A stretch of 64,000 nt of DNA from Thermoanaerobaculia bacterium. GTDB lineage: Bacteria > Acidobacteriota > Thermoanaerobaculia > Multivoradales > JAHEKO01. The stretch lies in assembly GCA_041394745.1 (NCBI GenBank), contig JAWKHP010000003.1, forward strand, positions 29,110 through 93,109. The letters are read 5' to 3'. A program made the translations under genes and the position numbers. This document shows, piece by piece, positions 4,824 through 58,605 of the stretch. How positions within the stretch are numbered: position 1 is the first letter of the stretch; the number at the start of each line of letters is the position of its first letter. The notes below the pieces were generated by a model, which searched no databases, had not been told where the DNA came from, and saw only the letters and a list, made by a program, of their open reading frames with translations.

Positions 4824-5858
4824 ATGAGGGACTCGATGCCGGCGGCGACTTCGGAAGAGGCTGAGGCGGTCGTTCGGGAGGACCGCGAGGTCCACGACTT
4901 CACGCCCAAGCTGACAATGTGGTGGGCGCGGGCGGCCCTCCTTGTCCTTGGGATGGTTTCCTCCGAGGTCCTGCTCTGGCAGATCGTCTTCCTCCCCTCG
5001 GACTGGGGGAACTGGGCCCACCTCCTCATGGCGGTCCTGCTGGTGGTGAACTTTCCGCCCTACGTGCGACCTCCCGGCCGCGCCCTCTGGCGCGTGACGG
5101 GTGAAGGTTTCTGGAGTCTCTCGGGCCGGCCCCGTCTGCTGATCGCCGCCGAGGACATCGCGGGGACCTGGCCCAGCGAGGAGAAGAGCCGGGGCGTGGC
5201 CGCCGGCGCGAGCCATTACTTCTTTGTTTCGGGTCGCGATGGGGCGAAGGGAATCGCCCTCCACTACGGAGACCTGGCCGAGAACGAGCGCCGGGAGCTC
5301 GAGCGGTGCCTCAGCGAGGTGGCCGACCTCGCTTCGCGCGAGGCGAACCACAGCTCCGGACCGGATGCCCCGCGGCTGTTCTACCGCGCTCGCGTCCGCC
5401 ACGAACCGGGGTTCTACCGACCGGCGCTCCTGGTTGCAAGCTGGATCGGTGTTCAGGGACTGGTCTTGCAGTCGATCGAAAGCGGTGTGGGTTGGCGGGC
5501 CGGGCTCTGGCTCCTCCCGCTCGTCTTGCTCCTGATCGGCCGGGCGCTCTGGAAGCGCCGGCGGCACACCCGGCCCGACCCGGTGGTGCGTGTCGACGAA
5601 GCCGGTGTGTGGCTGCTCCGCGGCGAGCCCGCTCCGCGGCTCGTCCTGCGGGCCGACGACGTCTCCCAGGTGCTCTGGGGCGGGCCGAAGATGGCGATCA
5701 AGCGGCGGGACGGGTCGACGTTGCACCTGGGGGTGGGGCGGCTGGCGCGACCGGATCAGGAGGACCTGGAGAGGCGGATCCGCGGGTTCGCGGAGGGCGG
5801 GCAGCGGCGGGAGGTAGAGTACGCGGACGGTGACCACGAACCGAACGGAGCCGAACCC
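4824..5858 (+). CDS. membrane protein (two TM segments plus a PH-like cytoplasmic region); the 3' end is ambiguous
   Basis: ORF 4824..6968 is protein-like up to ...EVEYADGDHEPNGAEP. It then runs without a stop into the S8 peptidase region, so the true stop is probably in another frame (TAG at 5815, TGA at 5831). Confidence 0.45.
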
Positions 5859-7296
5859 ATGAGACTCGGAGCTGTTGCCGTCGTTGCGCGACCCTCGTCC
5901 TCGCCGCCACCGGTCCCGCTGCGCCGCTGTGGCCGCGATCTGGGAGGGCGGCACTTCGAACGCCGGGGGACCGGTTGGCTGCAGGTCGAGGCCGACGAGC
6001 TCGTTCGAGGTGCCCGCGGGTGCTCACGGTGCGGTTCCGCGACGGGGTGGAGCGCGCGGCGCAGGATGCGGTGCTGGCCCAGCTCGGCGGCGTCGAGCTG
6101 CGCCGGGCGATCACCGGTTCGTGGACGTCGAGATCGCCGAGGGGCGCGACGTCCTCGACGCCGTGGCGGCCTTCGCGGCCCGCCCGGAGATCGCGGTGGC
6201 CGAGGCCAACACCTTCGGCGCCTACGCGCTGATCCCCAACGACACCCTCTACGGCAGCGAGTGGCACCTGCCTCAGATGCAGGTCGACGACGCCTGGGAC
6301 GTGACCACCGGCTCGACCCAGATCGTCGTCGCGGTGCTCGACTCCGGGACCGAGTTCACCCACGAGGACCTCGGCCTCGGGGTCGACGGCTACCGCAACG
6401 TCTGGCTCAACCCGGGCGAGGACGCCTGGTCGGATCCGACGAACCCGGCCACCGGCAACGGGGTCGACGACGACGGCAACGGCTTCATCGACGACTGGCA
6501 GGGTTGGGACTTCAACAACGGCAACAACGACCCGGCCGGGACCTTCTTCCACGGGACGGCGGTGGCCGGCGTCATCTCCGCGAAGACCAACAACAACCGC
6601 GGTGTTGCGGGAGTGGCGGGGGGCAACGGCGCGCCGGGCGTGAAGGTGCTCCTGGCCGGTGTCGGCGACAGCGCTCCCAACGGCGCCATCCTGGACGACG
6701 CCATCCTGTACGCGGCCGACAGCGGCGCCAGGATCATCCAGCTCAGCCTCACCGTCGGTCAGAGCTCGGCCATCGACGCCGCGCTGGCCATGGCCTACGA
6801 CACGTTCGGCCTGACGATCATCTGCTCGTCCGGCAACGGCGGGACCTCGAGCGTCGGCTACCCGAGCTCCGACTCGCACGTCATGGCCATCGGTTCGACG
6901 GGCATGACCGACCAGAAGAGCAGCTTCTCCCAGTACGGCGTGCTTCTGGAGCTGGCCGCCCCGGGTGAGGGGATCTGGATGCTCGACCTCAACGACGGCT
7001 ACGGGCCGAGCTCGGGCACGTCCTTCTCCTCGCCCAACACCTCGGGCACGGCGGCGCTGGTGCTGAGTCTCGCTCCGACGATGACCAACGCCCAGCTGCG
7101 CCAGCTGCTGCACGACACCGCGGCCAAGGTCGGCGGCTACAACTACAACTGGAACCCCGGCATGCCGGGCCACTCCATGGAGCTGGGCTACGGCCGGGTC
7201 GACGCGCTGGCCGCCGTTCAGGCGGTCCAGGCGCCGATCTTCGAGGACGGATTCGAGAGCGGCGACACCAGCGCGTGGACCACGTCGGCTCCCTAA
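5859..7296 (+). CDS. subtilisin-like S8 serine peptidase with an I9-type propeptide; the N-terminal quarter is split over three frames
   Basis: The catalytic triad is visible (VAVLDSGTE for Asp, HGTAVAG for His, GTSFSSP for Ser) in ORF 5875..7296. Propeptide pieces RVLTVRFRDGVERAAQDAVLAQLGGVELRRAITGS (frame of 5975..6232) and FVDVEIAEGRDVLDAVAAFAARPEIAVAEAN (frame of 5875) imply about two single-base indels near 6030 and 6118. The C-terminus ends ...APIFEDGFESGDTSAWTTSAP*. Confidence 0.65.
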
Positions 7297-19745: not shown

Positions 19746-22700
19746 TCACTCCCAGAACAGCGGCCGGCGCTGGCGGGGGTGGTTGCCGATCTCGTTCATG
19801 GTGGCGGCGTCGTAGAGGCGGCCGCCGACCATGGTGAGGGCGACGGATTCGGTGTTGCGGATGTCGGTCAGCGGGTCGCGGTCGAGGAGGATGAGGTCGG
19901 CGAGCTTGCCGGGCTCGACGGAGCCGAGGTCGGCGTCCATTCCGAGGTAGTGGGCGCCGTTGGCGGTGGCGGCGTGGAGGGCGTCGAGCTCGCCCATCCC
20001 TCCCTGGACGAGCATCCAGATCTCCCAGTGCGCCCCCAGGCCCTCACGCTGGCCGTGGGCGCCGATGTGGACCTCGACGCCGCGGGCGGCCAGCGCCTCG
20101 ACGCCCTCGGCGATGCGGAAGTGGTTGTACTCCTCCTCCGGGGCCAGGACCGGGCGCCGGGCCACCGGGTCGATCTGGTCGGCGGGGACGAAGGAGCGCA
20201 GGCGCTCGTCCTTCCAGACGTCGGTGTGGGCGTACCAGTAGTTCTCGCCCCAGAGACCGCCGTAGGCGACGATCAGGGTCGGCGTGTAGGCGGTGCCGGT
20301 CTGCGGCCACAGCTGCAGCACGTCCTCGTAGAGGTGCTCAAGCGGGATGGCGTGCTCGATGCCGGTGTGGCCGTCGACCACCATGGTCATGTTGTGCTCG
20401 TAGAGCGAGCCGCCCTCGGGCACCACCAGCATGTCGAGCCGGCGCGCGGCCTCGAGGATCTGCTGACGCTGATCGCGCCGCGGCTGGTTGTAGCTCTTGA
20501 CGCTGAAGGCCCCGGCGGCCTTCATCCGCCCGAGGTGGAAGAGCGCATCGTCGAGGCTGTCGATCTCGGCCTTGTAGGCGGGACCCGCGGCGCCGTAGAG
20601 GATGGTGCCGGTGGAGAAGAGCCGGGGCGCGGTGATCAGGCCGGCGCGAGCCATCTCGGCGGCGGCGAAGAAGGTGCTGGTGTCCGTGGACGGATCGTGG
20701 ATGGTGGTGACGCCGAAGCCCAGCGCCGCCAGGTGGAACCAGTTCTGCTGCGGCACGATCTCCTCGAACCCCTGGGAGCCGTGCCAGTGGACGTCGACCA
20801 GCCCCGGCATCAGGGTGCGCCCGGCGGCGTCGACGACCGCGGCGTCGGCGGGCACGTCGACCTCGTCGCGGGGGCCGACGGCGACGATGCGGTCACCCTC
20901 GACGAGCACCGTCGCGTCGTCGAGGACGGTGTCCTCGGCGTCCATCGTCAGCACGCGGGCGCCGACGAAGGCGACGCTGCCGGAGGGCACGTCCTTCTCG
21001 ACCGTCATCCCCAGCCGGGTCTCGGCGATCTGCGGCTCGGCCTCCGCACCCTCCTCCGCGGCCGGAGCGTCGGAGAGGAAGGCGAAGGCGTCGTCGAGGG
21101 GCCGCGTGTAGAGGGTGTTGCCGAGCGCCCAGTGGAGCCGCGCCGAGTCGCCCGACCAGTGCAGGTACTCCCCGGCCTCCTCGGAGACCTGCTCGACCGG
21201 GAAGCTCTCCGTGCCCGGACCCACGGCGACCGGCTTGCCGGTCACCGCGAAGGGGGCGACGAAAGCCTTGAAGCGTTCCGTGAAGGCGACCCAGCGGCCG
21301 TCGGGCGACACGTTCCACTCGAGCGCCGCCTCGCTGGTGAAGTGCTCGCGCTCGGCGCGCTCCTCGCGCGATCCGGTGAGGCCGACGCTCTTGAGCGCCC
21401 GGCCGTCCTCCCCCTCGAAGGTCATGAAGAAGACGCGCGAAGAGTCGGCACCGAAGTGCGGGCGGACGCCGTCGGCGGAGATCAGCTCGCTCGCGCCCCC
21501 GGCGGCCGGCACGCGGTAGAGACCGGTGTCGCGGCCGTAGAGGTCCTTGGAGAGGAAGCCGCCGCTGGTCTTGCGGTAGACGACCGTGGAACCGTCGGGG
21601 GAGAGCGCCGGCTCGACGTAGTGGCCCGGCGTGCCGGTGACGACGCGGCCCTCGGCCGCGCCCGCCACCGGCGCGATGCGCACCGCGCCGAGCTCCTCGT
21701 CGTCCCAGGAGACGAAGACCACGGAGCGGCCGTCGCGCGAGAACGACGGGTAGAGCTCCCAGTGGTCCGTCTGCGTGGTGAGGCGGTGGGGCGCGCCGTC
21801 TGGCAGCTCCTGGATCCAGATCCTGCCGAGCGTCTGGTAGAGAGCGCGGTCGCCGTCCGGGGAGACCTCCACCCAGCGCAGCATCTTGGTCTCGAAGGTG
21901 TCGGGCGCCGCCTCGCGCGCCGACCAGACGGTGGGGGAGACCCGGTGCGTCTGGTGGACGTGGAACGGGATCTCGACCGGCTCGCCGCTCTCGACATCGA
22001 CGCGGCGGATCTTGCCGCCCGCCCAGTAGACGAGGGAGCGCGAGTCCGGCGTCCAGGCGAAGTTGGCGTACACGCCGTGGATGGCCCAGGTCTCCTGATG
22101 GTCGCGGTCGAGGCCGTCGGCCACCTGCCGGATGGCGCCGCTGGCGACGTCGGTCACGAAGAGGGCGGTACCGTAGCCGCCGTCCTGCCGCCGTCCGACG
22201 AAGGCCAGCCGGCTGCCGTCCGGCGAGGGCGTCGGTCGCACCGCGCCGCCGGCGCGAACGACGAAGGGCTCGACCTCGCCGGTCGTCCGGTCGAGGCGCG
22301 AGATGCGATAGATGCCGCCGTGCGGGTCCTTGTTGTACTCGAACACCGGGCCCGGCGTGGCGTCGTGGCTGTAGTAGACGTAGCGCCCGTCGGGGGAGAA
22401 GGCCGGCTCGCCGAGGTCCTTCTGGTCGTTCGGCTTCTCGGTCATCTGCAGGCCGCCGCCGCCCGAGCGGTGGTAGAGCCAGATCTCGCCGGCGCCGAGC
22501 GAGCGCGTCGAGGTGAAGTGCTTGCGCGCCGCCAGGTACTCGCCGTCCGGGCTCCAGACGGCGTTGTTGAGGAGGCGGAAGTCCTCGTCGGTCACCTGGG
22601 TCGTCTCGCCGCTGGCGCGGTCGAGGATCCAGATGTTGTCGCCGCCGCCGGCGTCGCTGGTGTAGGAGATGGAGCGTCCGTCCGGGGAGAAGCGCGGCTG

Positions 22701-23084
22701 CATGTCCCACTGCATGCCGCTGGTGAGCGCCGTCGCCTCGCCGCCCGCGATGGGCAGAAGGTAGAGGTCACCCAGGAGGTCGAAGACGATCTCGCTGCCG
22801 TCGGGGGAGACGTCGAGGTTCATCCAGCTGCCCTCGGTGACGTCGATCGTCACCTCGCGCTCCTCGCCCGGCGGGTCGGCGACGTCCCAGGCGTCCTTCT
22901 CCTCCTCGCCGCTCTCCCGAGCGGTCTCGGCAGCCGCCTCCATCGTGCCGGTGCCGTCCTCGTCGGGCAGGCGCGCCGCGGACTGCCCTTCGGCACGGCT
23001 CTGCATCCGCCACTCGGCCGCGCCCAGAGGAAGAGCCAGGTGGAGTACGACGGCGATCGCGAGGGTCCGGGACAGTGTGCGCAT
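19746..23084 (-). CDS. TolB-like beta-propeller (WD40/PD40 repeats) fused to a C-terminal amidohydrolase domain, secreted
   Basis: The Met gives MRTLSRTLAIAVVLHLALPLGA. Repeated SPDG...LYxxx propeller blades are followed by an amidohydrolase domain (DVHWHGSQG...HDPS...). It is intact over 3.3 kb. Confidence 0.8.
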   Translation of the reverse strand: MRTLSRTLAIAVVLHLALPLGAAEWRMQSRAEGQSAARLPDEDGTGTMEAAAETARESGEEEKDAWDVADPPGEEREVTIDVTEGSWMNLDVSPDGSEIVFDLLGDLYLLPIAGGEATALTSGMQWDMQPRFSPDGRSISYTSDAGGGDNIWILDRASGETTQVTDEDFRLLNNAVWSPDGEYLAARKHFTSTRSLGAGEIWLYHRSGGGGLQMTEKPNDQKDLGEPAFSPDGRYVYYSHDATPGPVFEYNKDPHGGIYRISRLDRTTGEVEPFVVRAGGAVRPTPSPDGSRLAFVGRRQDGGYGTALFVTDVASGAIRQVADGLDRDHQETWAIHGVYANFAWTPDSRSLVYWAGGKIRRVDVESGEPVEIPFHVHQTHRVSPTVWSAREAAPDTFETKMLRWVEVSPDGDRALYQTLGRIWIQELPDGAPHRLTTQTDHWELYPSFSRDGRSVVFVSWDDEELGAVRIAPVAGAAEGRVVTGTPGHYVEPALSPDGSTVVYRKTSGGFLSKDLYGRDTGLYRVPAAGGASELISADGVRPHFGADSSRVFFMTFEGEDGRALKSVGLTGSREERAEREHFTSEAALEWNVSPDGRWVAFTERFKAFVAPFAVTGKPVAVGPGTESFPVEQVSEEAGEYLHWSGDSARLHWALGNTLYTRPLDDAFAFLSDAPAAEEGAEAEPQIAETRLGMTVEKDVPSGSVAFVGARVLTMDAEDTVLDDATVLVEGDRIVAVGPRDEVDVPADAAVVDAAGRTLMPGLVDVHWHGSQGFEEIVPQQNWFHLAALGFGVTTIHDPSTDTSTFFAAAEMARAGLITAPRLFSTGTILYGAAGPAYKAEIDSLDDALFHLGRMKAAGAFSVKSYNQPRRDQRQQILEAARRLDMLVVPEGGSLYEHNMTMVVDGHTGIEHAIPLEHLYEDVLQLWPQTGTAYTPTLIVAYGGLWGENYWYAHTDVWKDERLRSFVPADQIDPVARRPVLAPEEEYNHFRIAEGVEALAARGVEVHIGAHGQREGLGAHWEIWMLVQGGMGELDALHAATANGAHYLGMDADLGSVEPGKLADLILLDRDPLTDIRNTESVALTMVGGRLYDAATMNEIGNHPRQRRPLFWE

Positions 23085-23248
23085 GCGCTCCTCCGGGAGA
23101 CTCAGATCCGGCCGTGACCGGAAACAGGAAAGTGAGGGATCGAGCGGGATTATCTCAGGCCCGAGGCGCGGGGGTGGCGACGGCCCTGGCGCCCGCCGGC
23201 GGATCGGTCCAGACTCTCGGAGCCGGGACGTCCTCCCGGTCCCACACC

Positions 23249-24316
23249 ATGGAGCCGTCTCCCTCCGGATCCGAAGACCGAGCCAGGGGTGCCGTGCGTC
23301 GGGTCCTCGGCCGCTTGGCGCTCGTCGTCGGCGTGACGCTGGCGCTCCTCCTCCTGCTCGAGGCGCTGATGGCCCTGACCGGCTCCTACGAGCCGAATCC
23401 ACCCCTCTATCCCGGGGACGTCGAGGCGGTGAGCGATGCGACGACGGATCCCGACGTCGGGTGGCACCTGCCGCCGGGGGTGGTCTCGCGCGAGGAGACG
23501 GTCGACTACCGGATGCGCTACCGGGCCAACCGCCAGGGCTTCCGCGACCGCGAGCCGGAGGCGCGGCCGGGCCGGTGGAGGATCGCCTTCCTCGGCGACT
23601 CCTACACCTTCGGCAGCGGGGTCGAGCTGAGGGAGACGTTCGTCCGGCTGATCGAAAAACGGCACCGCGGCGTGCGCACCGACAACTTCGGCATCGGGGG
23701 GTTCGGAGTCGACCAGATGTGGGCGACGCTGCGTCGCTACGCGCTGGGCGTCTCGCCGGACGTCGTCGTCCTCTGCTTCATCCACTACGACCTCGATCGC
23801 AGCTTGACGGCGTACCGCGAGGGGCACGCGTGGCTGGCCAAGCCGACCTTCAAGCTGGCGGACGGCTCCCTCCGGCCGCTGACTCGCGCCGACCGGCCCA
23901 CCGGCCTCGCCGGCTGGCTCGAGCGCCGCTCGCACCTCGTCGAGCTCTGGCGCCGCGCCACCTTCGGCCTCGAGCGCACCCTCCCGGTCGGCTACCGCTG
24001 GCGCCTCAACCGCGCCCTCTTCGCCGCCGTGCGCGACGACTGCCGCGCCGCCGGCATCCCCCTGGTCGTCGTCCACATCCCGGTCAACCGCGCCGCCCCG
24101 GCGCCCTCCTTCGCCCGCGAGATGAAGAGGCTGGGCATCGCCTACCTCGACCTCCAGCCCCTCCTCCCCGACGACTTCACCCCCCTCTACTTCCCCCACG
24201 ACCGCCACTTCACCCCGGCCGGCCACCGCTGGGCCGCCGACGCCATCGACGCCTTCCTCGAAGAGCGGGGCCTGCTCGGTCCACCGGCCCCAGTGTCGCC
24301 CGGACCGGAGCGGTAG
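23249..24316 (+). CDS. SGNH/GDSL-family hydrolase with an N-terminal TM anchor
   Basis: MEPSPSG... with the TM segment LALVVGVTLALLLLLEALMAL, the GDSL block FLGDSYTFGSGV, and a C-terminal DRHFTPAGHRW (DxxH). Confidence 0.6.
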   Translation: MEPSPSGSEDRARGAVRRVLGRLALVVGVTLALLLLLEALMALTGSYEPNPPLYPGDVEAVSDATTDPDVGWHLPPGVVSREETVDYRMRYRANRQGFRDREPEARPGRWRIAFLGDSYTFGSGVELRETFVRLIEKRHRGVRTDNFGIGGFGVDQMWATLRRYALGVSPDVVVLCFIHYDLDRSLTAYREGHAWLAKPTFKLADGSLRPLTRADRPTGLAGWLERRSHLVELWRRATFGLERTLPVGYRWRLNRALFAAVRDDCRAAGIPLVVVHIPVNRAAPAPSFAREMKRLGIAYLDLQPLLPDDFTPLYFPHDRHFTPAGHRWAADAIDAFLEERGLLGPPAPVSPGPER

Positions 24317-27117: not shown

Positions 27118-28590
27118 TCAGTTGGCGGTCGTCGTCCAGTGACTCGTGTCGCCGCTCTCGAACCCGTCGAGGAAGAACGCGCCTTCGCCGGCCCACGGAC
27201 AACCCTCCCCGTTGTGGATGCAGGCGATGCGGCTGCCCGCTCCAACCACGACGTAGAGCTCACCGAGGTGGTCCTCGGCGAACCCGTAGGTCCCCGAGAA
27301 CCCGCTGGCCCAGCACTGGGCGTTGATGGCCGCCGGGTTGGCGGGGTTGAGGGTGGTCGTCTTCCAGATCTGCCCGCAGGCCGCGTCGCTGTAGAGGTAG
27401 TCCCCCGCGATCGAGGGCACCTCGGTGCCACGGTAGCGGAAGCCCCCCATGACCGAGGCCCAACCGCCGTTGTGGTGGCAGAGGATGGGATCCCAGAAGC
27501 CGCTCGAGCGCGGGAACTCGCAGGTCGTACCCGGGTCCACCGGGCAGCCGGTCACCGAGCAGCCGGACTCGTCGTTGTTCGACGTCTCGCACCCTTCACG
27601 GCACGACCATCCGAAGTTCACGGGCGCGGCGAGGGCGGCGCGCTTGAGGTTGATCTCCTCCCACTTGTTCTGACCCACGTCGCCGATGTAGAGGTCGCCC
27701 GTCGTCCGGTCGAAGCTGAAACGGAACGGGTTGCGCAGCCCCATCGCCCAGACCTCGTCGCAGGCGGGATCCTGACCGAAGAACGGGTTGGTGGACGGCA
27801 CCGTGTAGTTGCTCGGCTCGCCCGTGGCGTCGCAGTCGTCCGGGGGGCCGCCCAGCGGGTCGATTCCGCGCACGTCGATGCGCAGCATCTTGCCGAGCAG
27901 GGTGGTGTTCTGCTGGCCGTCGCCGTTGATGCCCTGATTGCCGTCACAGCCGCCGCCGCCGTCGCCGATCGAGATGTAGAGGAAGCCGTCCGGGCCGAAC
28001 GCCATGTTGCCGCCGTTGTGGTTGCTGGCGGAGGAGTGCTCGATGACGAGGATCTTGGTCGCGGACCCCGGGTCGGCCACGTCGGGGTTCCCGGCCGAGC
28101 GCTCGTAGCGTTCGATGACGACGTCGCCCAGCGTGCCGCCGCCGAGGTCGCGGCGGGTGTAGTAGACGTAGAAGCGTCCGTTGGTCACGTAGTCGGGATC
28201 GGCCACCATCGAGAGCAGACCGCGCTCGCCGCCGAAGGAGACCGGCCCGCCGCTGCTCTGGCGCAGGTCGAGGAACATCGTCGGCAGGATCTCGCCGGTC
28301 CCGCCGTCCCAGACGAGGATCGCCCCCTCCTGGGTGGCGATGAGGCGCTTGCTCCGGCCGTCGTTCGGATCCACGAACGAGATCGGCGTGTTGGCGCCGC
28401 TCGGGAAGTCCGACGGACCGACGATGTTCGTGATTCCGACCGGAGCGCCCGGCGTGCAGGTCGTGCCGCACGACACGTTGAAGCAGCTCGTCGCGCCGTG
28501 AGCCGGTGCCCCGAGGAGGGCGGCGGCGAGGACGGCGGAGACGGGGACGAGGAAACCGGCGAGCCGGCGATGGGCGGTCGAGAACGTCAT
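27118..28590 (-). CDS. PQQ-dependent sugar (glucose/sorbosone) dehydrogenase-like beta-propeller protein, secreted
   Basis: The Met at 28590 gives MTFSTAHRRLAGFLVPVSAVLAAALLGAPAHG. Motifs GLLSMVADPDY, NHNGGNMAFGPDGFLYISIGDGGGG and GLRNPFRFSFD are present. It ends ...GAFFLDGFESGDTSHWTTTAN*. Confidence 0.7.
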   Translation of the reverse strand: MTFSTAHRRLAGFLVPVSAVLAAALLGAPAHGATSCFNVSCGTTCTPGAPVGITNIVGPSDFPSGANTPISFVDPNDGRSKRLIATQEGAILVWDGGTGEILPTMFLDLRQSSGGPVSFGGERGLLSMVADPDYVTNGRFYVYYTRRDLGGGTLGDVVIERYERSAGNPDVADPGSATKILVIEHSSASNHNGGNMAFGPDGFLYISIGDGGGGCDGNQGINGDGQQNTTLLGKMLRIDVRGIDPLGGPPDDCDATGEPSNYTVPSTNPFFGQDPACDEVWAMGLRNPFRFSFDRTTGDLYIGDVGQNKWEEINLKRAALAAPVNFGWSCREGCETSNNDESGCSVTGCPVDPGTTCEFPRSSGFWDPILCHHNGGWASVMGGFRYRGTEVPSIAGDYLYSDAACGQIWKTTTLNPANPAAINAQCWASGFSGTYGFAEDHLGELYVVVGAGSRIACIHNGEGCPWAGEGAFFLDGFESGDTSHWTTTAN

Positions 28591-36750: not shown

Positions 36751-39573
36751 TCACCCGGTGTTCTGCAACCCGTGGGCGATGCCGGTGACGGTGGCGAAGA
36801 GGGTTTGGAGGAGGGTGTCGTCCGGTGCGATTCGCCAGCCGCGCCAGCGGCAGGTGCCGACCTGGAGGAGGCTCATCGGGTCGACGTAGGGGTTGCGCAG
36901 GCGGATGGAGCGGGCGAGGACGGGGTCGGCTTCGAGGATCTCGGTCTGGCCGGTGGCGCGCAGGAGCAGGTCGACGGTGAGGTCGTGCTCGCGGCGGACC
37001 TCGTCGAAGAGGGGGCGGGCGTCGGGGTCAGCGGCGCGGCGTGGCCGCTCGGCGATATCGAGGTCGGACTTGGCGAGCGCCATCTCGACGTCGGCCAGGA
37101 GGTTGCGCACAGAGGACGGCGGTGAGCGCGGTGAGGGCGTCGTCGCCGCCCTCCTCGGCGACGGCGGCCAGGCCGCTCCCGACGCCAGAACCAGCCAGGC
37201 ACCCATCTGCCGGCTCTGCGTCCACGAGAAGACCCACGGGATGGCGCGCAGCGACTCCGCGCCGCCGCCCTCGGAGCGTGAGGCCGGACGCGAGCCGATC
37301 GACGGCCATCGATGACGTCGATCGGCGTGGCGGCGCGGAAGTAGGACTCGAACCAGGGGTCCTCGTGAACAACCGGTGGCTCCCCGACTGGCCGACGCCG
37401 AAGAGCCCCAGCCAGGCACGCCCGGGGACTGGTTCCGATCGACCCCTCCCCGTCGTCGGGGACAGGGCGAGGCAGGTACCAAACCGGCCGGGGTCGTCGG
37501 TGGTGGCGTCTGGCGGTGCAGGGCCAGTCGGAACCTGTCCCCTGACGGTGGCCAAGAGGACGGCGCCGGTGGTGCGCTCGGGGTTGCGCTCGGCGATGCC
37601 GCGCAGGCCGTACTTGTCAGCGATCACCTCGCCCTGCTCGGTCACCCGCAGCCAACCGCCAAGCCGAGCCGGGGGCGCGGCGAGGATGGCGCGGTGGTCT
37701 GCCGCCGCCGCGGCCGACGGTGCCGCCGCGGCCGTGGAGAGGACAAGGGCACACCCTCGCGACAGGCGACCTCGACCCGGGCGCTCCTGGAGCCCGCTGC
37801 AGGCCGCAGCGCGAGGCGGCGATGCCGCGTGCGCCTTTCGAGTCACTGCCAGCCCACCATCACGTGCTGGGTGAGGCCGCGGCCCTCGAGATGCCGCCGG
37901 TAGACGGGATCGCGAACGAGCTCGGTCAGCACCTCCGGCGCCGCCTCGAGATCGGCGACGGTCTCGAAGAGCGGGCAGACGTCGACCGCCGCGGGTCGCC
38001 GGTGGCCAACGGGCCGGCGCCAGCACCGAGAGCACGTCGTCGCCGCCCGCGCCATGCTGATGATCGAGAGACCGACGGCGGCGGGTCCCAAGGTCCGTCG
38101 CGCCTCGGCGGCCGCGCGGAACGACTCGAGGACCCGTTCGGTCTCGGGATCGGCGGCCCCGTCTCCCAGGCCCGGAGCCGGGCGGTCCGGCGACCGGGCC
38201 GCGCCCAGCATGGCGTGAAGGACGTCTGCGCGCTCGGCCGCGGAGCGCGTCCCCCACTGGGCGTCATTCAGAAGCCGGCCGACGGCCTGTCGGTGGACGG
38301 CGGCGTGCTGGCGCTGGTCGAGGGTGGCCAGGTGGAAGCCGAAGGTGGCCAGGCGTCTCTCGAGGCGGCGCAGCCAGAAGAGCCCCGCGTGCTCGCCGTG
38401 GTGGCGCGACAGGCTCTCGGCGATCGTGGCGAGATCGGCGGCAAAGCCGGCCGGCCCGTCGTAGCCCGCTTCGCCTCCGGCCGCGGTGGCGTCGAGGCGG
38501 GCGGCGATCAGGGTGAGGAGGACGTGGTAGGGCATCCGCCGCCGCCGCTCGGGGATCGCCGCCCGGGCCTCGGGGAGGAGCTCGCCCAGCGCCTCGATGC
38601 GCTCATCCACCGCGCCGTCCACCTCGACGCGCTCCGTCGACTGCGAGAGCCGCCCGGCGAGCGCGCGGACGTCGCGCCGGTAGAGGCCGAGGACGAGCTC
38701 GCGCTGGCGCGCCAGGGCGGCGCGGAAGGTGCCGGCGTCGACGAACGGGTTGCCGTCCATGTCGCCGCCGACCCAGGAGCCGAAGCGCAGGAGGGCCGGT
38801 GCCCGCCGGGTCCCCCCCGCCTCGGGCCAGGCGGCGACGGCCGCGCGCTCGAGCTCCTCGAGGAAGGGCGGGACGACGCGATACAAGACGTCGGTCAGGA
38901 AGAAGAGCACGTGCTCCCGCTCGTCGGCCACCGTCGGACGCTCGGCCGAGAGCTCGCGGGTCTGCCAGGCGGTCGTCACCTCGGCCCGCAGCCGGGCATC
39001 GATGGCCCGCCGCTCCGGCACGGTCAGCGACGGGTCGAGCCGCTCGACCAGGGAACGGGCGATGCGCTGCTCCTTCTCCAGCAGGACGCGCGGCGTCGCC
39101 TCGGTGGGGTGGGCGGTGAAGACCGGCTCGACCCGCAGGCCGTCGAGGAGCTCCTGGAGGTCGGAGGCGGACAGCTCCGGGCGCTCTGCGCGCAGTCGCG
39201 CCAGGACGTCGAGCAGGCTCTCCGGCTGCGGCGGCCCGTCCTCCACGCGCAGGTAGCTGCGCCGCCGCCGGATGCGGTGCACCTTCTCGGCGAGGTTGAC
39301 GACCCGGAAGTAGGCCGCGAAGGCGCGCACCAGCTCGCCTGCGCCGACGGCGTCGAGCGCCGCGAGGTCCCGAGCCAGCTCCGCGCCGGCCGCCGCGTCC
39401 CCCTGACGGCGGCGGATGGCGAGGCGCCGTGCCGACTCCACCCGCTCGAAGAGCTCGGGGCCGCCCTGCTCGACGAGCATCTCGCCCACCAGGGCCCCGA
39501 GCTCGCGCACGTCATGGCGCAGGGGCTCGTCCTTGGCGTTGAGCTCGACGTCGCGATCGAACGGTTGCGTCAC
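36751..39573 (-). CDS. ppc: phosphoenolpyruvate carboxylase, split over three frames by at least three apparent indels
   Basis: The N-terminal 576 aa are in ORF 37843..39573 (VFTAHPTE motif). A central piece LRVTEQGEVIADKYGLRGIAERN is in ORF 37028..38257. The C-terminus RAIPWVFSWTQSRQ...LRNPYVDPMSLLQV...GIAHGLQNTG* is in ORF 36751..37482. Confidence 0.7.
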
Positions 39574-39614: not shown

Positions 39615-40799
39615 TCAGGGCGCGACGACGCTCCAGGCGGAGGTGTCGCCGGTTTCGAAGCCGTCGGCGAAGACCAGCGGCCTCGCCACGGCCACCTTGA
39701 GGTCGAGGTCGCCATTGTCGAAGTAGCTCACCACCGGGAGGCCGTCGGCTCCGAGGACGATCGACGTGAAGTAGCCGACGTCCCCGGCGACGTCGACGGT
39801 CTGCAGGGTGGCGGCGGAGCACGCGGCGTCCGCACACCAGGCGACCTCGAGATCGCCGTTCGTCACGTCCGTGTAGCTCACGATGGGCAGGCCCCCGGCT
39901 CCGCGGACGATCGAGGTGTACTGCCCGACGTCCTCGATGCCGTCGACGGTCACCGAGGAGGCGGACGCGCAGCTCGCGTCGTCGCAGTGCGCCACCTTGA
40001 GATCGAAGCCGGTCGAATCCAGGTAGCTGACGACCGGCAGGTCATCGGCGCCGATGGCGATCGCCGTGTAGGCGCCGACGTTGCCGTCACTGTCGACGGT
40101 GTGCCGCTCGGCGGAGGCGCAGAGGAGATCGCCGCAGTGCGCCACCTTGAGGGCGTTGTTGCCGTAGTCGCGGTAGCTGATGACCGGCAGCCCATCCGTG
40201 CCGATGGCGATCGAAGTGTTCTGTCCGACGTCCGGGCCGTCGTCGACCACCTCGAGATGGGCGGAGGTGCAGGGCACGTCGGCGCAGTGCGCCGCCTTCA
40301 ACGTGCCGTTGTCGAGGTCCAGATAGCTGATGATCGCGAGCCCGTCGATCCCGATGGCGATCGAGGTGTGGAAGCCCACGTCACCGGCGCTGTCGAGGGT
40401 GGTGAGGGTGGCCGTCGAGCACGCGACGTCCTCGCAGTGCGCCACCCGGAGATCGTTGGCGGCAGCGTCGAGGTAGCTGACGATGGCGAGCCCGTCGGTG
40501 CCGACGGCGATCGAGGACTCGAACCCCGGATCGCCCTGGTCGTCGATGGTGTGCAGGGTCCTCGTAGCGCAGAGGGGATCGTCGCAGTGGGCGATCTCGA
40601 GCGTGGAGTGGGTGAAATCGCGGTAGCTCACGATCGGCAGCTCGTCCGCGCCGAGGGCGATCGAGGTGTAGCCCCCTACCGCGTCGGCGCCGTCGACGAT
40701 GCCGATTCGCCAGGCGGGCAGCCGAGCTCCACCGCGGGCCGCCGTGGCCGCTGCTGCAAGGATCAGGCAGGCGATCCGAAACGTCCGTCGAGGATCCAT
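39615..40799 (-). CDS. secreted repeat protein with about eight 44-aa beta-propeller-like repeats, each carrying a CxDxxC motif
   Basis: The signal peptide is MDPRRTFRIACLILAAAATAARGGA. The repeat unit is VDxxGDVGxYTSIAIGxDGLPxVSYxDxxNxxLKVAHCxDxxCxxA. The protein ends ...LVFADGFETGDTSAWSVVAP*. Confidence 0.6.
   Translation of the reverse strand: MDPRRTFRIACLILAAAATAARGGARLPAWRIGIVDGADAVGGYTSIALGADELPIVSYRDFTHSTLEIAHCDDPLCATRTLHTIDDQGDPGFESSIAVGTDGLAIVSYLDAAANDLRVAHCEDVACSTATLTTLDSAGDVGFHTSIAIGIDGLAIISYLDLDNGTLKAAHCADVPCTSAHLEVVDDGPDVGQNTSIAIGTDGLPVISYRDYGNNALKVAHCGDLLCASAERHTVDSDGNVGAYTAIAIGADDLPVVSYLDSTGFDLKVAHCDDASCASASSVTVDGIEDVGQYTSIVRGAGGLPIVSYTDVTNGDLEVAWCADAACSAATLQTVDVAGDVGYFTSIVLGADGLPVVSYFDNGDLDLKVAVARPLVFADGFETGDTSAWSVVAP
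39660..40720. repeat. about 8 tandem coding repeats of 132 bp inside the repeat-protein gene
   Basis: The repeat units have near-identical lengths and recurring codons (gtcgac...ggcgacgtcggc...agctacctcgac). They are coding repeats, not CRISPR. Confidence 0.5.
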
Positions 40800-50725: not shown

Positions 50726-54004
<3,279 letters not shown>

Positions 54005-54142: not shown

Positions 54143-57100
54143 CTAGTTGGCGCAGATGGCGATGTCGTCGACGCCGGCCTCGATCAGGTCGCCGCTGGCG
54201 GTGCCGTCGGAGGCCTGGACGCGGAAGCGGACGCTGGAGCCCGCCGGGACCGCGGTGGTCGCCTCGGTCCACGCGGCGTTGCTGGTGACGTCGCCGAGGG
54301 AGACCATCGGGGTCCAGGTCGAGCCGCCGTTGGTGGAGATCTCGAGGCGGAAGAAGTCGCCGCTCGGATCGCCGCCGGCGTCGCGCTGGCCGTGGAAGTA
54401 CCAGACCGAGACGTCGGACGACTCGCTCACCGGGTAGACCGGCGACAGCGCGATGCAGTTGCCGCCGTCGACGTCGTCGGTGCCCGCCGCCGTGTTGACG
54501 GCGGTGAAGAAGGCGTTGCCCGTCCCGGTCGTGTGGTCGCCGCCGACCTGGGTGACGACCCCGCCGTTGGTGACCTGGGTGGGCGTGCCGACGACGAAGG
54601 CACCGGTCGTGCAAGTGCTGGAACCGCTGTTGGTCCAGCCCTCGGCGCCGCCGCTGAAGTGCGCGTCGACGCTGCACGCGGAGGCCGTTCCTCCGGTCAC
54701 CACGACGTCGTCGACGAACCACCCGGTGAAGTTGTTGAAGGAGCCGTCGATCGAGTCGAAGCGGAACCGGATCTGGATGTCGTTGCCGGCGAAGGCGGCG
54801 AGAGAGATCGGTCCGCTGGAGACCCAGGCGGCGGTCGAGGCGTTGGTGGAGTCACGCGACCACACCGTCGTCCACGAGCCGCTGCCGGCCACCGAGACGG
54901 CGACCTGCGTCTGGTCGAAGGAGCCTCCGGCGTAGGACTCGACGACCCGGTAGTAGTCGAACGAGAGCTCCGAGGAGGCGGTGACTCCGCTGATGGCCGG
55001 GGAGATCAGATCGCCGGTGGTGTCGCCCGCGTTGTAGGTGCAGGTGGAGTTCTGACCGTAGTAGACCGACGAGACCGGGGAGGAGTAGCCGGGGCTGGCG
55101 CAGCCGGAGCTCGACACCAGGTGCCACAGGCCACTCGTGGTCCAACCGGAGAGACCGCTCTCGAAGTCCTCTTCGAACGGGTTGCCGCCGCCGGCCGGCG
55201 TGATCGTGATGCCGATCGCGTCGGAGTCGGAGAGGCCGCCGGAGTCGGTGACCGAGGCGGTGATGGTGTGGCTGCCGATCGAGAGTGAGCTGGTGGAGAA
55301 CGAGGCCCCGGAGCCGATGGCCCCGTCGAGGCTCGAGGTCCACGACAGGCTCGAGGAGAGCGGACCGTCCTCGGCGTCCGTGGCGGTGCCGCTGAACGAG
55401 ATCGAGCTGCCGACGACGAAGGAGGCACCGTTCGACGGTGCGGTGATCGTCACGCTCGGCGGCGTGTTGGACGCACCACCGCCGGTGACGACGACGTCGT
55501 CGACGAACCACCCGGTGAAGTTGTTGAAGCTGCCGTCGATCGAGTCGAAGCGGAAGCGGATCCGGATGTCGTTTCCGGCGAAGCCGGCGAGGGAGATCGC
55601 ACCGCTGGCGGCCCAGGCCGCGGTCGAGGCGTTGGTGGAGTCGCGCGACCAGACCGTCGTCCACGAGCCGCTGCCGGCCACCGAGACGGCGACCTGCGTC
55701 TGATCGTAGGAGCCTCCGGCGTAGGACTCGACGACCCGGTAGTAGTCGAACGAGAGCTCCGAGGAGGCGGTGATGCCGGTGACGACGGGCGAGATGAGGT
55801 CACCGGTGGTGTCCCCCGCGTCGTACGTGCAGGTCGAGTTCTGACCGTAGTAGAGCGAGGAGACCGGTGAAGAGTAGCCGGGGCTGGCGCATCCGGAGCT
55901 CGAGACCAGGTGCCACAAGCCGCTCGTGGTCCAGGCCCCGAGGCCACCCTCGAAGTCCTCGTGCAGGCGCTCGCCGCCCGCCGAGGTGATGGTCACGCTG
56001 ATCGAGTCGGAGCCCGAGGCGCCGCCCGAGTCGGTGACCGAAGCGGTGATGGTGTGGGTGCCCACCGACAGCGAGCTGATGGAGAACGACGCGCCGGAGC
56101 CGATCGAGCCGTCGCGACTCGAGGTCCAGGAGAGGCTCGAGGAAAGCGGGCCGTCCTCGGCGTCGGTGGCCGTCCCCGCGAACGAGACGGACGCACCCTC
56201 GGCGAAGCTGGAACCGTCGGCCGGGGCCGTGATCGTCACCACCGGGGCCTGATTGACCGGTCCGCCGCACCCCGGAATGCTGAAGGCGCCGACGTGGGTG
56301 CGCCAGGAGGCGCTGCTGGTCGAGGCCAGGTACTCGGTGGTGAACCAGAAGGTGCAGTCGTCCGCCGGGTCGAGCTCCATCGAGGCGTAGTCGCCCCAGC
56401 GCGCGGCGCTGTGGGTCTGTGAGCCGCCGCCGGCGAGCAGCACGGACTCGGCCTCGAGCGTGCCGAGGGGGTCGCCGGCGTCGCGCGTGGCGTAGTAGAT
56501 CGACGGGAAGTTGCTGGCGTTGCCGCGGCTGTAGCCGAGCGCGATGTTGCCGGAGCCGTCCATGGCGATGGAGGGCATCCAGCGGTGCACGGCGTCGGGC
56601 GAGTGCGTGCCCTGCTGATAGAGGGTCCAGCCCGCGCCGGTATCGCGCAGCTCGAACCAGCGCGGAGCCGCCCGGTTGCCGGTGGAATTGACGTCCACCG
56701 TCCAGGCACCCACGAGGGTCTCGTGACTGCCGAAGTTGCGATAGACGAGGCGCTGCATCGGCCACCACGAGGCGCTGTCGATGCCCTGGCTCGTGCCGGG
56801 CTGCGGGATGCAGTTGGAGACGAAGAAGCCGCACACGGTCCAGTTGAAGTTGGCGAGCCCCTGGCTCGGAGTGATCGAGCGCACGAGGCTGATCGAGGAG
56901 CTCGACGGGGTGTTCCAGTCGACGTGGAACTCGTAGACGTCGAGCGAGTCCGTCGCCGGGGAGCCGAAGTAGGGCTCACCGCCGTCCCGGAAGCTGTAGA
57001 ACGTTCCGGGCCTGTTGGCCGGCGGCGGCGTGGCGCCGTCGGAATCGGCGGGCATCATCAGGTTGGGGAAGCTCTGGAAGAACTGCATCGGCCGCGCCGT

Positions 57101-58387
57101 CTGCCCCGCGATCATCCGCGCGCGGTCGATGGCGAAGACGTCGTACTGGTTCTGGGAGCCGGAGTTGGTGCCCATGAAGTACGCGTTGTTGTTCGCCGCC
57201 GGCCAGACACCGAGCTTGAAGTAGTCGGGGAATCGCGGGGTGACGACCTCGTAGAGGTACCAGGAGCCGGTGGGGTCGGGGGTCTGCGAGACGGCGAAGC
57301 ACACCGACTCGTTGTTGTTCGAGACCGCGAACTGGGAGAGGACGAAGCGGTTCGCCTGCTGGTCGTAGAGGGCGATCGCGTCGCCGTCGTTGAAACTCTG
57401 GCACGGTCCGCCGAAGCCCGACCACAGTGAGCTGGTGTTGGTCGGGCCGGTGAGCTTGGTGCCGCTCTTGTCGTAGATGGCGAAGGAGAGGTTGACGACC
57501 TGGATGTAGTGGTTCGGACCGACCGTTCCCTCGGTGTCGGGAGGCAGCACGCCGTTGACGTTGTTGATGCCCTCGAAGTCGAGCGACAGGGAGGGCGTGC
57601 GGCCGGGGGCCTCTGCGCCCGGACCGGCGAGGACGTCCTCGGACTTCGGGGCGGTGGTACCGAAGAGGTTGCCGTTCTCGTCGAAGAGGGTCTCGTGGCG
57701 CAGCTCGTTGACCTCTTCGCCGCGGTCCTTCAGGGTGCCGGTGACGGCGAGCGGCAGGTCGCGGACGGGGAGGGAGAGGCGCGGCCCGAGCACCGGCACC
57801 TCGAAGGGCCGGCGCCGGGTGCCGTGGTCGTTGCGGTCACCGCGCGTGCCGCCGCCGTCGGCCATCGGTCGCAAGATGGCGGCCTGGACGGCGCTCGCGC
57901 CGCCGGGGATCCGGTATCCCTCGAAGTGCGGCCCGGGGGCGCCCGGCGTGCGGACTCCCGCGGCCACCAGCACGGACTCGAGCGTGTGTCCCGCCGGGAG
58001 GATGCCCACGCGCGGCCCGTAGGCCAGGCCGTCCAACGTGAGCTCGAGCTCGACCTCGGGGCAGGCCGCGAAGACGTCCTGCAGGGAGGCGAGCAGGCTG
58101 CCGGGGGCGGCCTCACCGCGGCCGAGATCGATCGAGAAGTCGCCATGGCGCATGGTGGTCGGCGGCAGGGTCTCGGCATAGAGCTCCGCCCCCTCGGGGT
58201 CGAAGTAGCGGGCCGTGACCGAGACGGTGCCGTCGAGCGGCTGGCCCGCGGCGTCGAGCGCCCGACCGCGGTAACCGAGATGCTCGGGTACCGAGACGGC
58301 CGCGACCGGCAGCGCGCCGAACAGGAGGATGCAGGCGGCGGTCGCCGCCCACGCGCTCAGGGGAGCTCTCGAGGTGCAACGGATCAT
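54143..58387 (-). CDS. giant secreted multidomain protein (1413 aa): N-terminal region, propeller-like domain, two tandem PKD/Ig-like plus MAM/LamG-like jelly-roll modules, and a C-terminal MAM-like domain
   Basis: The Met at 58387 (ggagaa RBS) gives the signal MIRCTSRAPLSAWAATAACILLFGALPVAAVSV. The Ig-like region reads ITAPADGSSF...ITASVTDSGG. The jelly-roll region starts EDFE(G/S)GL(G/S)(A/G)WTTSGLWHLVSS...FDYYRVVESYAGGS...FRFDSIDGSFNNFTGWFVDDVVV. The gene is intact over 4.2 kb. Confidence 0.7.
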   Translation of the reverse strand: MIRCTSRAPLSAWAATAACILLFGALPVAAVSVPEHLGYRGRALDAAGQPLDGTVSVTARYFDPEGAELYAETLPPTTMRHGDFSIDLGRGEAAPGSLLASLQDVFAACPEVELELTLDGLAYGPRVGILPAGHTLESVLVAAGVRTPGAPGPHFEGYRIPGGASAVQAAILRPMADGGGTRGDRNDHGTRRRPFEVPVLGPRLSLPVRDLPLAVTGTLKDRGEEVNELRHETLFDENGNLFGTTAPKSEDVLAGPGAEAPGRTPSLSLDFEGINNVNGVLPPDTEGTVGPNHYIQVVNLSFAIYDKSGTKLTGPTNTSSLWSGFGGPCQSFNDGDAIALYDQQANRFVLSQFAVSNNNESVCFAVSQTPDPTGSWYLYEVVTPRFPDYFKLGVWPAANNNAYFMGTNSGSQNQYDVFAIDRARMIAGQTARPMQFFQSFPNLMMPADSDGATPPPANRPGTFYSFRDGGEPYFGSPATDSLDVYEFHVDWNTPSSSSISLVRSITPSQGLANFNWTVCGFFVSNCIPQPGTSQGIDSASWWPMQRLVYRNFGSHETLVGAWTVDVNSTGNRAAPRWFELRDTGAGWTLYQQGTHSPDAVHRWMPSIAMDGSGNIALGYSRGNASNFPSIYYATRDAGDPLGTLEAESVLLAGGGSQTHSAARWGDYASMELDPADDCTFWFTTEYLASTSSASWRTHVGAFSIPGCGGPVNQAPVVTITAPADGSSFAEGASVSFAGTATDAEDGPLSSSLSWTSSRDGSIGSGASFSISSLSVGTHTITASVTDSGGASGSDSISVTITSAGGERLHEDFEGGLGAWTTSGLWHLVSSSGCASPGYSSPVSSLYYGQNSTCTYDAGDTTGDLISPVVTGITASSELSFDYYRVVESYAGGSYDQTQVAVSVAGSGSWTTVWSRDSTNASTAAWAASGAISLAGFAGNDIRIRFRFDSIDGSFNNFTGWFVDDVVVTGGGASNTPPSVTITAPSNGASFVVGSSISFSGTATDAEDGPLSSSLSWTSSLDGAIGSGASFSTSSLSIGSHTITASVTDSGGLSDSDAIGITITPAGGGNPFEEDFESGLSGWTTSGLWHLVSSSGCASPGYSSPVSSVYYGQNSTCTYNAGDTTGDLISPAISGVTASSELSFDYYRVVESYAGGSFDQTQVAVSVAGSGSWTTVWSRDSTNASTAAWVSSGPISLAAFAGNDIQIRFRFDSIDGSFNNFTGWFVDDVVVTGGTASACSVDAHFSGGAEGWTNSGSSTCTTGAFVVGTPTQVTNGGVVTQVGGDHTTGTGNAFFTAVNTAAGTDDVDGGNCIALSPVYPVSESSDVSVWYFHGQRDAGGDPSGDFFRLEISTNGGSTWTPMVSLGDVTSNAAWTEATTAVPAGSSVRFRVQASDGTASGDLIEAGVDDIAICAN
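54702..56280. repeat. intragenic tandem duplication, 2 x 789 bp at about 93-95% nucleotide identity (encodes the duplicated PKD+MAM module)
   Basis: 'acgacgtcgtcgacgaaccacccggtgaagttgttgaag' occurs at 54702 and again at 55491. The alignment continues for about 790 bp with scattered substitutions. Confidence 0.7.
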
Positions 58388-58605
58388 CGTGGTTCTCCTT
58401 CCGACGGCATCCGCCGTCCGGTGGAAACAGACTGATTGCCGGTCGTTCGGGCCGGTGCGGCCGGCGCGGCCGCCCGTGGAAGCGCATCGCCGGTGGACCG
58501 TGCGCCACGCTCTCTGGGGCTTGTTTGACCTCAGATTTAGCACAAGCCGCGGCACGCCCGCGTGACGTGGTCCACAGCGGCCCTCATCGGGCCCTCATCG
58601 TTTCC

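Follow-up and report, generated by a model that had tools for sequence, protein, structure and literature searches.

In a 64,000-nucleotide stretch of a Thermoanaerobaculia genome (contig JAWKHP010000003.1, positions 29,110 to 93,109; hereafter the window), a gene on the minus strand encodes a beta-propeller protein that ends in a conserved peptide of 21 residues, PLVFADGFETGDTSAWSVVAP, which we call the tag. The tag is strictly C-terminal, modular, widespread and enriched in Thermoanaerobaculia, and we found no description of it in the model libraries or the literature that we searched. Comparison of its many occurrences suggests that it acts as a new type of sorting or docking signal, one that would be read after export of the protein; we place the probability of this reading at roughly 55%. 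The propeller gene, its tag and the two other copies of the tag in the window are located as follows.

39615..40799, minus strand: whole coding sequence of the propeller protein, 394 amino acids plus the stop codon (39615-39617), with an intact frame, from the list of open reading frames (ORFs) and the translation.
39618..39680, minus strand: C-terminal tag of the propeller protein, residues 374-394, PLVFADGFETGDTSAWSVVAP, found with a hidden Markov model (HMM) built from the tags of other genomes (42 bits, independent E-value 1e-12).
7231..7293, plus strand: tag copy APIFEDGFESGDTSAWTTSAP at the end of a Peptidase_S8 gene (ORF ending at 7296), found by six-frame scan and HMM.
27121..27183, minus strand: tag copy GAFFLDGFESGDTSHWTTTAN at the end of a glucose/sorbosone-dehydrogenase (GSDH)-type gene, found by six-frame scan and HMM.

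A six-frame translation of the window contains the pattern DGFE[ST]GDTS.W, followed by five residues and a stop codon, at exactly three places. These occurrences end the S8 protease gene, the GSDH-like gene (27118..28590, minus strand, with the signal peptide MTFSTAHRRLAGFLVPVSAVLAAALLGAPAHG) and the propeller gene, so that the original prediction, made from the sequence of the window, was right to count the propeller gene as a third instance of the tag. The 60 nucleotides that it assigned to the tail do hold a real tail, but they cover only 19 codons and the stop, and the conserved tag comprises 21 codons. When the window is searched with an HMM built from 74 foreign tags, these three ORF ends receive 42, 37.6 and 29 bits, and nothing else in the window scores above 5.5. 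The copies differ at synonymous sites (GGA, GGG or GGC; GAG or GAA; AGC, AGT or TCC), and the tag is therefore conserved at the protein level. These same differences rule out a DNA repeat or mobile element as the origin of the tail. None of the three tags contains Arg or Lys, and the propeller protein ends in SVVAP. The window is most similar to a Thermoanaerobaculia metagenome-assembled genome (MAG), L002, whose orthologue of the GSDH gene, with 76.7% nucleotide identity, also ends in a tag. The tagged S8 ORF has no in-frame signal peptide, and a propeptide-like stretch, VRFRDGVERAAQDAVLAQLGGVELRRAITG, is found in another frame (approximately 5700-6100, plus strand), which suggests that its N-terminal region is frame-shifted by a frameshift or an indel error.

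To survey the tag beyond the window, we scanned one genome per GTDB species at the DNA level with the pattern DGFE[ST]GDT[ST]xW, without demanding a stop codon, and obtained at least 119 loci with at least 130 matches. We also joined the three window tags into one query against a set of 5.8 billion proteins, which gave 496 proteins at E<=10, and examined the best 120 of them. Both surveys place the motif at the end of proteins. The stop codon lies at most 8 residues past the Trp in 117 of the 130 listed DNA matches and exactly 5 residues past it in 74. All of the best 120 proteins contain the motif, with 82 ending exactly 5 residues and 98 at most 8 residues past the Trp. The consensus is [ILV]F-x-DGFE[ST]GDT[ST]-x-W-S-x-x-V-P-stop, and proteins in the second survey typically end in ...[ILV]F[AS]DGFESGDTSAWS-x-x-VP. 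It is important to consider positions that the search pattern did not impose: among the 130 listed matches, position -3 is I, L or V in 119, position -2 is F in 119, and the residue after the Trp is S in 92, while the final V, P and stop are present in 53, 72 and 75, respectively. The five residues upstream of the tag are rich in Pro and Gly.

By taxonomy, 100 of the 119 listed loci are labelled Acidobacteriota, mostly Thermoanaerobaculia; the labels comprise Thermoanaerobaculia (including Ca. Multivoradales and Ca. Sulfomarinibacteraceae), 'Holophagae' MAGs and unclassified Acidobacteriota. Ten listed loci belong to other phyla (a Polyangiaceae MAG, a deltaproteobacterial MAG, gammaproteobacterial MAGs, Kangiella, Crocinitomicaceae and Peribacter), and nine are unclassified. 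Genomes carry several tags each: there are three in the 64-kb window, and at least 3-6 per MAG. No model in Pfam-A or in NCBIfam release 20 matches the tag, whether the query is an entire protein or the peptide by itself, and the literature that we searched for the motif and for Thermoanaerobaculia secretion contains nothing that describes it. Tagged proteins are named 'hypothetical protein' in their sources. At some loci tags are found close together. One locus has three tandem paralogous genes (L047:213-3112, plus strand), each of which ends in a tag (LDGNGCFGRLF[RN]DGFE[ST]GDTSAWS...), and several loci have further, divergent tags on neighbouring genes that are missed by the exact pattern and caught by the HMM. 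A 105-residue fragment, P0121, has two tandem tag motifs at a single C-terminus (...IFFDGFESGDTGAWSKAVALFLIFLDGFESGDLEAWDD).

The proteins that carry the tag are diverse. In total, 69 tagged proteins match 40 different Pfam families, among them Peptidase_S8, FG-GAP, beta-helix, BNR, InhA-type MAM, LVIVD, GSDH and trypsin-like proteins, as well as M14, M28, PAD_porph, GDSL lipase, cytochrome c7 and NHL. Judged by these family assignments, the repertoire is what would be expected of surface or secreted proteins. According to a crude, home-made heuristic with a background rate of 40%, a signal-peptide-like N-terminus is present in 42 of 53 tagged ORFs, compared with 92 of 228 untagged ORFs at the same loci (Fisher p = 2.6e-7). 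Clear signal peptides are present on both the propeller protein and the GSDH protein.

The tag is also separable from the proteins that bear it. A protein of 1,470 amino acids encoded in the window (54143..58555, minus strand) matches, over its N-terminal 670 residues, five proteins elsewhere that are tagged (one of them, L018, is 53% identical), while the window copy is untagged. Because one protein can thus have tagged as well as untagged homologues, we regard the tag as modular. Within the window, two beta-lactamase-family proteins, a DUF2911-TPR protein and the 1,470-residue protein are exported and untagged, and therefore the tag marks only a subset of exported proteins. The 1,470-residue exported protein contains two nearly identical modules of approximately 290 residues, in each of which a PKD/Big_7-like part precedes a MAM-like part, and the MAM-like parts start with FE(E/-)DFE(S/G)GL(S/G)(G/A)WTTSGLW. 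We considered whether the first strands of these MAM-like parts (FEEDFESGLSGW) are related to the tag; the tag HMM gives them no score, and we treat the likeness as a loose similarity.

Given a terminal, recurrent peptide on proteins of this kind, the natural comparison is with the short C-terminal signals that are read by sortases and related enzymes. Like the tag, the LPXTG/sortase, PEP-CTERM/exosortase, GlyGly-CTERM/rhombosortase and MYXO-CTERM/myxosortase signals have a short, conserved signature at the very end of the protein, occur in many copies per genome on unrelated carriers with signal peptides, and are restricted to particular lineages. Haft (bioRxiv 10.1101/2023.06.07.544157) has set out seven attributes of small C-terminal sorting domains. 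The tag has five of them, namely a terminal position, multiple copies, an invariant signature, signal peptides on its carriers and unrelated carriers, and these generic attributes are what speaks for a sortase-type or exosortase-type signal that is cut by a membrane-embedded enzyme. However, it lacks the other two, a transmembrane segment after the signature and a terminal basic cluster. Proteins end five residues past the motif, so that only S-x-x-V-P follows the Trp, with neither a hydrophobic helix nor an Arg/Lys cluster; no helix is encoded downstream of the stop codons that might be reached by read-through; and no NCBIfam CTERM model matches. A helix and basic cluster after the motif are found only in two rare outliers, L080:5381-6379 (minus strand) and P0198 (...WSTVIPALFGDGPLVNGMLLVLMVAGAAVMRLKER), which look like hybrids with a classical tripartite anchor. 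To our knowledge, every known short sorting signal depends on a membrane helix and a basic cluster, and we know of no cognate enzyme for the tag. Because the tag has neither element, it is not sortase- or exosortase-like and could not be read by a membrane-embedded transpeptidase or protease, and its reader must differ in kind; we consider a signal of the sortase type extremely improbable. An anchor-free alternative is a secretion signal of the type IX (T9SS) or type I (T1SS) secretion system. T9SS substrates in Bacteroidota, which include proteases, adhesins and propellers exported by the Sec pathway, likewise have an anchor-free C-terminal signal, their C-terminal domain; the tag, like it, would be recognized in the periplasm or at the outer membrane, and the S8, M14, M28, PAD_porph, BNR, FG-GAP and beta-helix carriers resemble T9SS cargo. 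However, that domain is a folded beta-sandwich of 70-100 amino acids with its own models (TIGR04183 and PF18962), whereas the tag is a peptide of 21 amino acids that is found mainly in Acidobacteriota, appears unstructured (predicted local distance difference test, pLDDT, of 30-67) and has no Pfam or NCBIfam match at E<=1-10. T1SS substrates have no N-terminal signal peptide, unlike carriers of the tag. A T9SS-type or T1SS-type signal is therefore very unlikely.

We thus favor a post-export sorting or docking signal. The propeller protein, consisting of a signal peptide, a seven-bladed propeller and a flexible tail of 21 residues, would be exported by the Sec pathway, whereupon a component of the envelope would read the tail as a linear peptide and either move the protein to the cell surface or the outside, or hold it there. 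Because the tag resembles the isolated first strand of a jelly-roll domain, addition of a beta-strand to a receptor is the most concrete mechanistic proposal that we can offer. In viral contigs of IMG/VR there are nine exact matches to the motif, six of which are not C-terminal but open a further 190-610 residues. Over approximately 200 residues, the post-motif regions of L134, L141, L135, L137 and a locus of Acanthopleuribacter pedis (L055) are homologous to one another (24-31% identity, E-values between 1e-6 and 1e-12), and they terminate in G-x-YFD-x-F. Moreover, the motif can be aligned, below threshold, with the N-terminal strand of CBM_4_9 (PF02018, positions 4-46, E 0.008-0.02) and with Polysacc_lyase (PF14099), and, among proteins in the PDB (E 0.0076-2.7), with Cip1 (3zyp, E 0.0076), CBM22 (4xuo) and CBM61 (2xom). 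The tag sequence F-x-DGFESG-x4-W would then correspond to the N-terminal strand motif of CBM4_9/ConA-like jelly-rolls (PF02018, PF14099; 3zyp, 4xuo), and by these sub-threshold alignments the tag looks like the first beta-strand of such a jelly-roll, isolated from the rest. The remaining approximately 180 residues of the domain are absent from the propeller protein and from about 90% of the genomic matches; no domain-like sequence is encoded downstream of the propeller protein's tag, and the protein ends 5 residues past the motif.

One gene pair shows what a partner could look like. A Polyangiaceae MAG with three tagged loci (L042) has a gene for a tagged dihaem cytochrome c (L042:3106-4035, minus strand) that ends in ...LIFEDGFESGDTSSWSGTQ*. 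On the same strand, 237 nucleotides downstream and with its own GGAGG ribosome-binding site, a second gene (L042:2206-2871, minus strand) encodes the signal peptide MKRFVTLLAFAAILFVSTGAMA and a mature part that matches positions 16-195 of the jelly-roll profile, without the motif strand. This pair adjoins a sigma-54 two-component system. On the strength of this one gene pair, a receptor that is deficient in the strand may take up the tag in trans.

The most specific version of the docking idea, which we advance only tentatively, is accordingly that the tag is a beta-strand donated in trans, completing a secreted jelly-roll that has no first strand of its own and thereby tethering the tagged protein non-covalently to a common scaffold or partner. 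For this proposal speak the homologous domain of approximately 200 residues that the motif opens in the six viral-contig matches and in L055, the sub-threshold alignments, which for CBM_4_9, Polysacc_lyase, Cip1, CBM22 and CBM61 alike fall on the N-terminal strand, and the secreted jelly-roll gene next to a tagged gene that lacks just the motif strand. Tags are also far more uniform than is usual for the N-termini of domains, and this uniformity suggests one common partner. However, there is a single gene pair, in a Polyangiaceae MAG rather than in Thermoanaerobaculia, and neither the window nor any of the other 118 listed loci (approximately 1 Mb in all) yielded a strand-less jelly-roll. Jelly-rolls also tolerate N-terminal variation, so that the apparent lack of a strand may be over-read. 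In chaperone-usher and type V pili, donor-strand complementation or exchange lets a terminal peptide of one protein fill the missing strand of another's beta-sandwich. The proposed tag would resemble these pili in giving a terminal strand to an incomplete partner, but the pilin is Ig-like, whereas the fold to which the tag would belong is a CBM/ConA-like jelly-roll, and no pilus, usher or chaperone is involved here. Conceivably, then, Thermoanaerobaculia and some Myxococcota could donate an orphan strand to a jelly-roll 'catcher' for surface display or complex assembly, in a strand-tag system that would be unrelated to pili, sortases or the T9SS. The same resemblance can be read more modestly: the tail could be a functionless vestige of a lost CBM or jelly-roll domain, or a C-terminal cap or pro-peptide with no role in localization, for instance a Pro end that resists proteases or a mark for periplasmic S41/PDZ proteases. 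The tag does look like the first strand of a domain that is often C-terminal on secreted enzymes, its terminal V-P could shield against carboxypeptidases, and one of the genes in the window is for a tricorn-like S41 protease that has a PDZ domain. However, at least 10 near-invariant residues and the same stop position are kept across approximately 40 unrelated families in many genomes, which is hard to reconcile with a vestige; a pro-peptide is ill-fitting for non-enzymes such as the propeller protein; and the last residue of a PDZ ligand is normally hydrophobic, whereas that of the tag is Pro. We consider it unlikely that the tail is a vestige, cap or pro-peptide.

Several observations weigh against a sorting or docking signal, and our confidence in it is limited accordingly. 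We did not find recognition or export machinery in the window, where the neighbours are ordinary chromosomal genes, and clustering of the gene neighbours at the 119 listed loci gave no candidate for a sorting machine. Genes that recur near tagged genes encode Ser/Thr kinase-TPR proteins (12 of the 119 listed loci) and extracytoplasmic function (ECF) sigma factors (6 of 119), but this recurrence is probably a background of kinase-rich genomes. Kinase-TPR genes lie near tags in L005, L011, L031, L034, L071, L102 and others, often paired with an ECF sigma gene, and in the window a kinase gene (8875-10701, plus strand) follows the tagged S8 gene at a distance of 1.6 kb. Nearly all carriers of the tag are uncultured MAGs, and the sorting role rests on sequence. 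The heuristic behind the enrichment of signal peptides is, as stated, crude. The disorder of the tag in the AlphaFold2 model (blocks with pLDDT of 67, 43 and 30) is weak evidence, since the underlying alignment held no tagged homologues. Frameshifts are present elsewhere in the assembly, though the propeller ORF is intact. Finally, the family to which the propeller belongs is almost never tagged (see below), so that the tag is uninformative about the role of the propeller.

The propeller protein is of interest in its own right. Its ORF has a G+C content of 0.90 at third codon positions, which is typical of coding frames in the window (72% G+C overall), and its parts upstream of the tag are as follows.

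40731..40799, minus strand: signal peptide, residues 1-23, MDPRRTFRIACLILAAAATAARG, a basic n-region followed by a hydrophobic stretch, read from the sequence.
39681..40718, minus strand: seven tandem repeats of 50 amino acids, residues 28-373, forming a seven-bladed beta-propeller, based on the spacing of Cys motifs, AlphaFold2 and Foldseek.
40569..40586, minus strand: C-x4-C motif of blade 1, C72-C77, CDDPLC. For this and the following motifs, the Cys columns are invariant in a family alignment of 40 sequences.
40419..40436, minus strand: C-x4-C motif of blade 2, C122-C127, CEDVAC.
40269..40286, minus strand: C-x4-C motif of blade 3, C172-C177, CADVPC.
40119..40136, minus strand: C-x4-C motif of blade 4, C222-C227, CGDLLC.
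39969..39986, minus strand: C-x4-C motif of blade 5, C272-C277, CDDASC.
39819..39836, minus strand: C-x4-C motif of blade 6, C322-C327, CADAAC, preceded by Trp rather than His.

The original prediction described about eight near-identical repeats with a period of 44 amino acids, each with a pair of cysteines. There are in fact seven repeats, and the Cys motifs are spaced exactly 50 residues apart, which sets the period. Pairwise identity among the repeats is 38-58% (mean 48%), too low for near-identity. The repeat consensus is T-x-VD-x-x-GDVG-x-YTSIAIG-x-DGLP-x-VSY-x-D-x-x-N-x-x-LKVAHC-x-D-x-x-C, and the cysteine pair, C-x-D-x-x-C usually preceded by His, is present in six of the seven blades: blade 7 ends in ...LKVAVAR, has no Cys pair, and is followed directly by PLVFADGFETGDTSAWSVVAP and the stop codon. 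The RRTF in the signal peptide could be read as a weak twin-arginine motif.

That the protein is propeller-like, as the original prediction had it, is borne out by structure prediction. We ran AlphaFold2 on the family alignment of 40 sequences and on the sequence without its initiator Met, so that each residue number in the model is the true number minus 1. The model has a mean pLDDT of 92.4 and a predicted template modelling (TM) score of 0.88, with pLDDT >95 across the repeat region, and its 28 beta-strands form seven blades of four strands each. The signal peptide is a detached helix (pLDDT 62-72). In a Foldseek search of the PDB, the top 20 matches are all seven-bladed PLL/PHL lectins of Photorhabdus, with E-values of 8.5e-15 to 3e-12, TM-scores normalized to the target of 0.71-0.79, and 13-16% identity over approximately 340 aligned columns; entries 8q83 and 5c9l match with an E-value of 8.5e-15 and a TM-score of 0.75.

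Such matches raise the question of whether the propeller is itself a lectin of the PLL/PHL type that binds fucose or O-methyl sugars, the more so as the repeats of these lectins (PDB 5c9l, 6rg2, 5mxe, 8q83) number seven and are, at approximately 50 residues, similar in length to those of the propeller protein. We find this doubtful. Homology is undetectable in sequence: at 13-16% identity, neither phmmer with the single sequence nor hmmsearch with the family profile finds any relative in the PDB. The sugar sites of the PLL family rely on Trp residues between adjacent blades (PMC6943638), whereas the propeller protein has only three Trp residues (positions 30, 321 and 389), none of which recurs per repeat. 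In addition, cysteines in the PLL family make bridges between subunits (PMC6943638) and are not paired within each blade as they are here, and the described lectins have neither a signal peptide nor a C-x4-C motif within the repeat. The propeller is probably a binding module and not an enzyme.

The propeller family is large. When 1.84 billion representatives of clusters at 50% identity were all scanned with HMMER, 13,406 matched the family at E<=1e-3 and 3,374 at E<=1e-30, some of which are giant multi-propeller proteins. The original prediction had allowed that the repeat might belong to a well-characterized family such as SBBP or YVTN. However, no family model in Pfam or NCBIfam matches the protein, including those for SBBP, YVTN, LVIVD, NHL and Kelch repeats, and hmmscan against Pfam at E<=1 returns only three spurious, sub-threshold matches, none to a propeller repeat family. 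The consensus of the family, VG-x-YTSIAIG-x-DGLP-x-ISY-x-D-x-TN-x-DLKVAHC-x-[ND]-x-x-C, is one to which the protein conforms, and the period across 2,179 repeat units is 50-52 residues. All twelve cysteines of the propeller protein are invariant in the family alignment, and the C-x4-C pair most likely forms a disulfide that closes a loop between blades. We favor a disulfide over a metal site at H-C-x-D-x-x-C because the protein is exported, only 50% of the 2,179 units have His immediately ahead of the first Cys, and the +2 position is Asn (44%) about as often as Asp (43%); a metal site is disfavored on the latter two counts. Of the best 120 propeller homologues, 92 have a hydrophobic N-terminus, as in exported proteins. 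Public assemblies gave no exact match to the propeller protein itself.

Whether homologues elsewhere also end in the tag was a question raised with the original prediction, and the answer is that they almost never do. The tag is present in none of the best 120 homologues in the set of 5.8 billion proteins, in none of 13 metagenome relatives, and in 2 of the 150 best family representatives, namely P0265 (...GIFSDGFESGSTAAWIP*) and the truncated P0347. A query consisting of the last repeat and the tag finds two matches, both untagged, and there is no propeller homologue among the 119 listed tagged loci. Since homologues almost all lack it, the tag is, as far as this comparison reaches, an add-on acquired in the lineage that carries the gene and does not belong to the propeller family as such. 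Other tails are found in its place. Most relatives, which come largely from Chloroflexota and metagenomes, end in ...H-C-S-N-x-F-C-x-P-Y-[FHW]-R-R-R*; an end of the form C-x(3-4)-C-x(4-7)-R is present in 63 of 120 homologues; and smaller groups end in ...ARPPVS, ...SPWWITGGR or ...VAVEGxxLIFE. Lineage-specific tails thus seem to have a hot spot at the C-terminus of the propeller.

Two further features of the window concern genes other than those discussed so far. Directly downstream of the propeller gene, a gene for phosphoenolpyruvate carboxylase (36751-39573, minus strand) is split over at least three frames (...HVMVGWQ*), and is either a pseudogene or the product of indel errors in the assembly. 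Large, untagged hydrolases of periplasmic type are encoded at 50726-54004 (plus strand) and 19746-23402 (minus strand), an S41 protease and a PD40-amidohydrolase fusion; the S41 protease is the tricorn-like enzyme mentioned above, with a PD40 propeller and PDZ domains.

In its statistics, the tag behaves as a sorting signal: it is terminal, modular, present in multiple copies, carried by exported proteins and restricted in lineage. Sortases, exosortases, rhombosortases, myxosortases and the T9SS each opened an area of envelope biology and gave rise to tools such as sortagging. Thermoanaerobaculia are an abundant class in soil, sediment and wastewater, and the tag, which marks a defined subset of their exported proteome, could serve at once to predict it. 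The propeller family, for its part, comprises more than 13,000 sequence clusters that have neither a Pfam model nor a solved structure. If strand donation were to prove true, the tag and its receptor would constitute a natural peptide-and-catcher pair of biotechnological interest.

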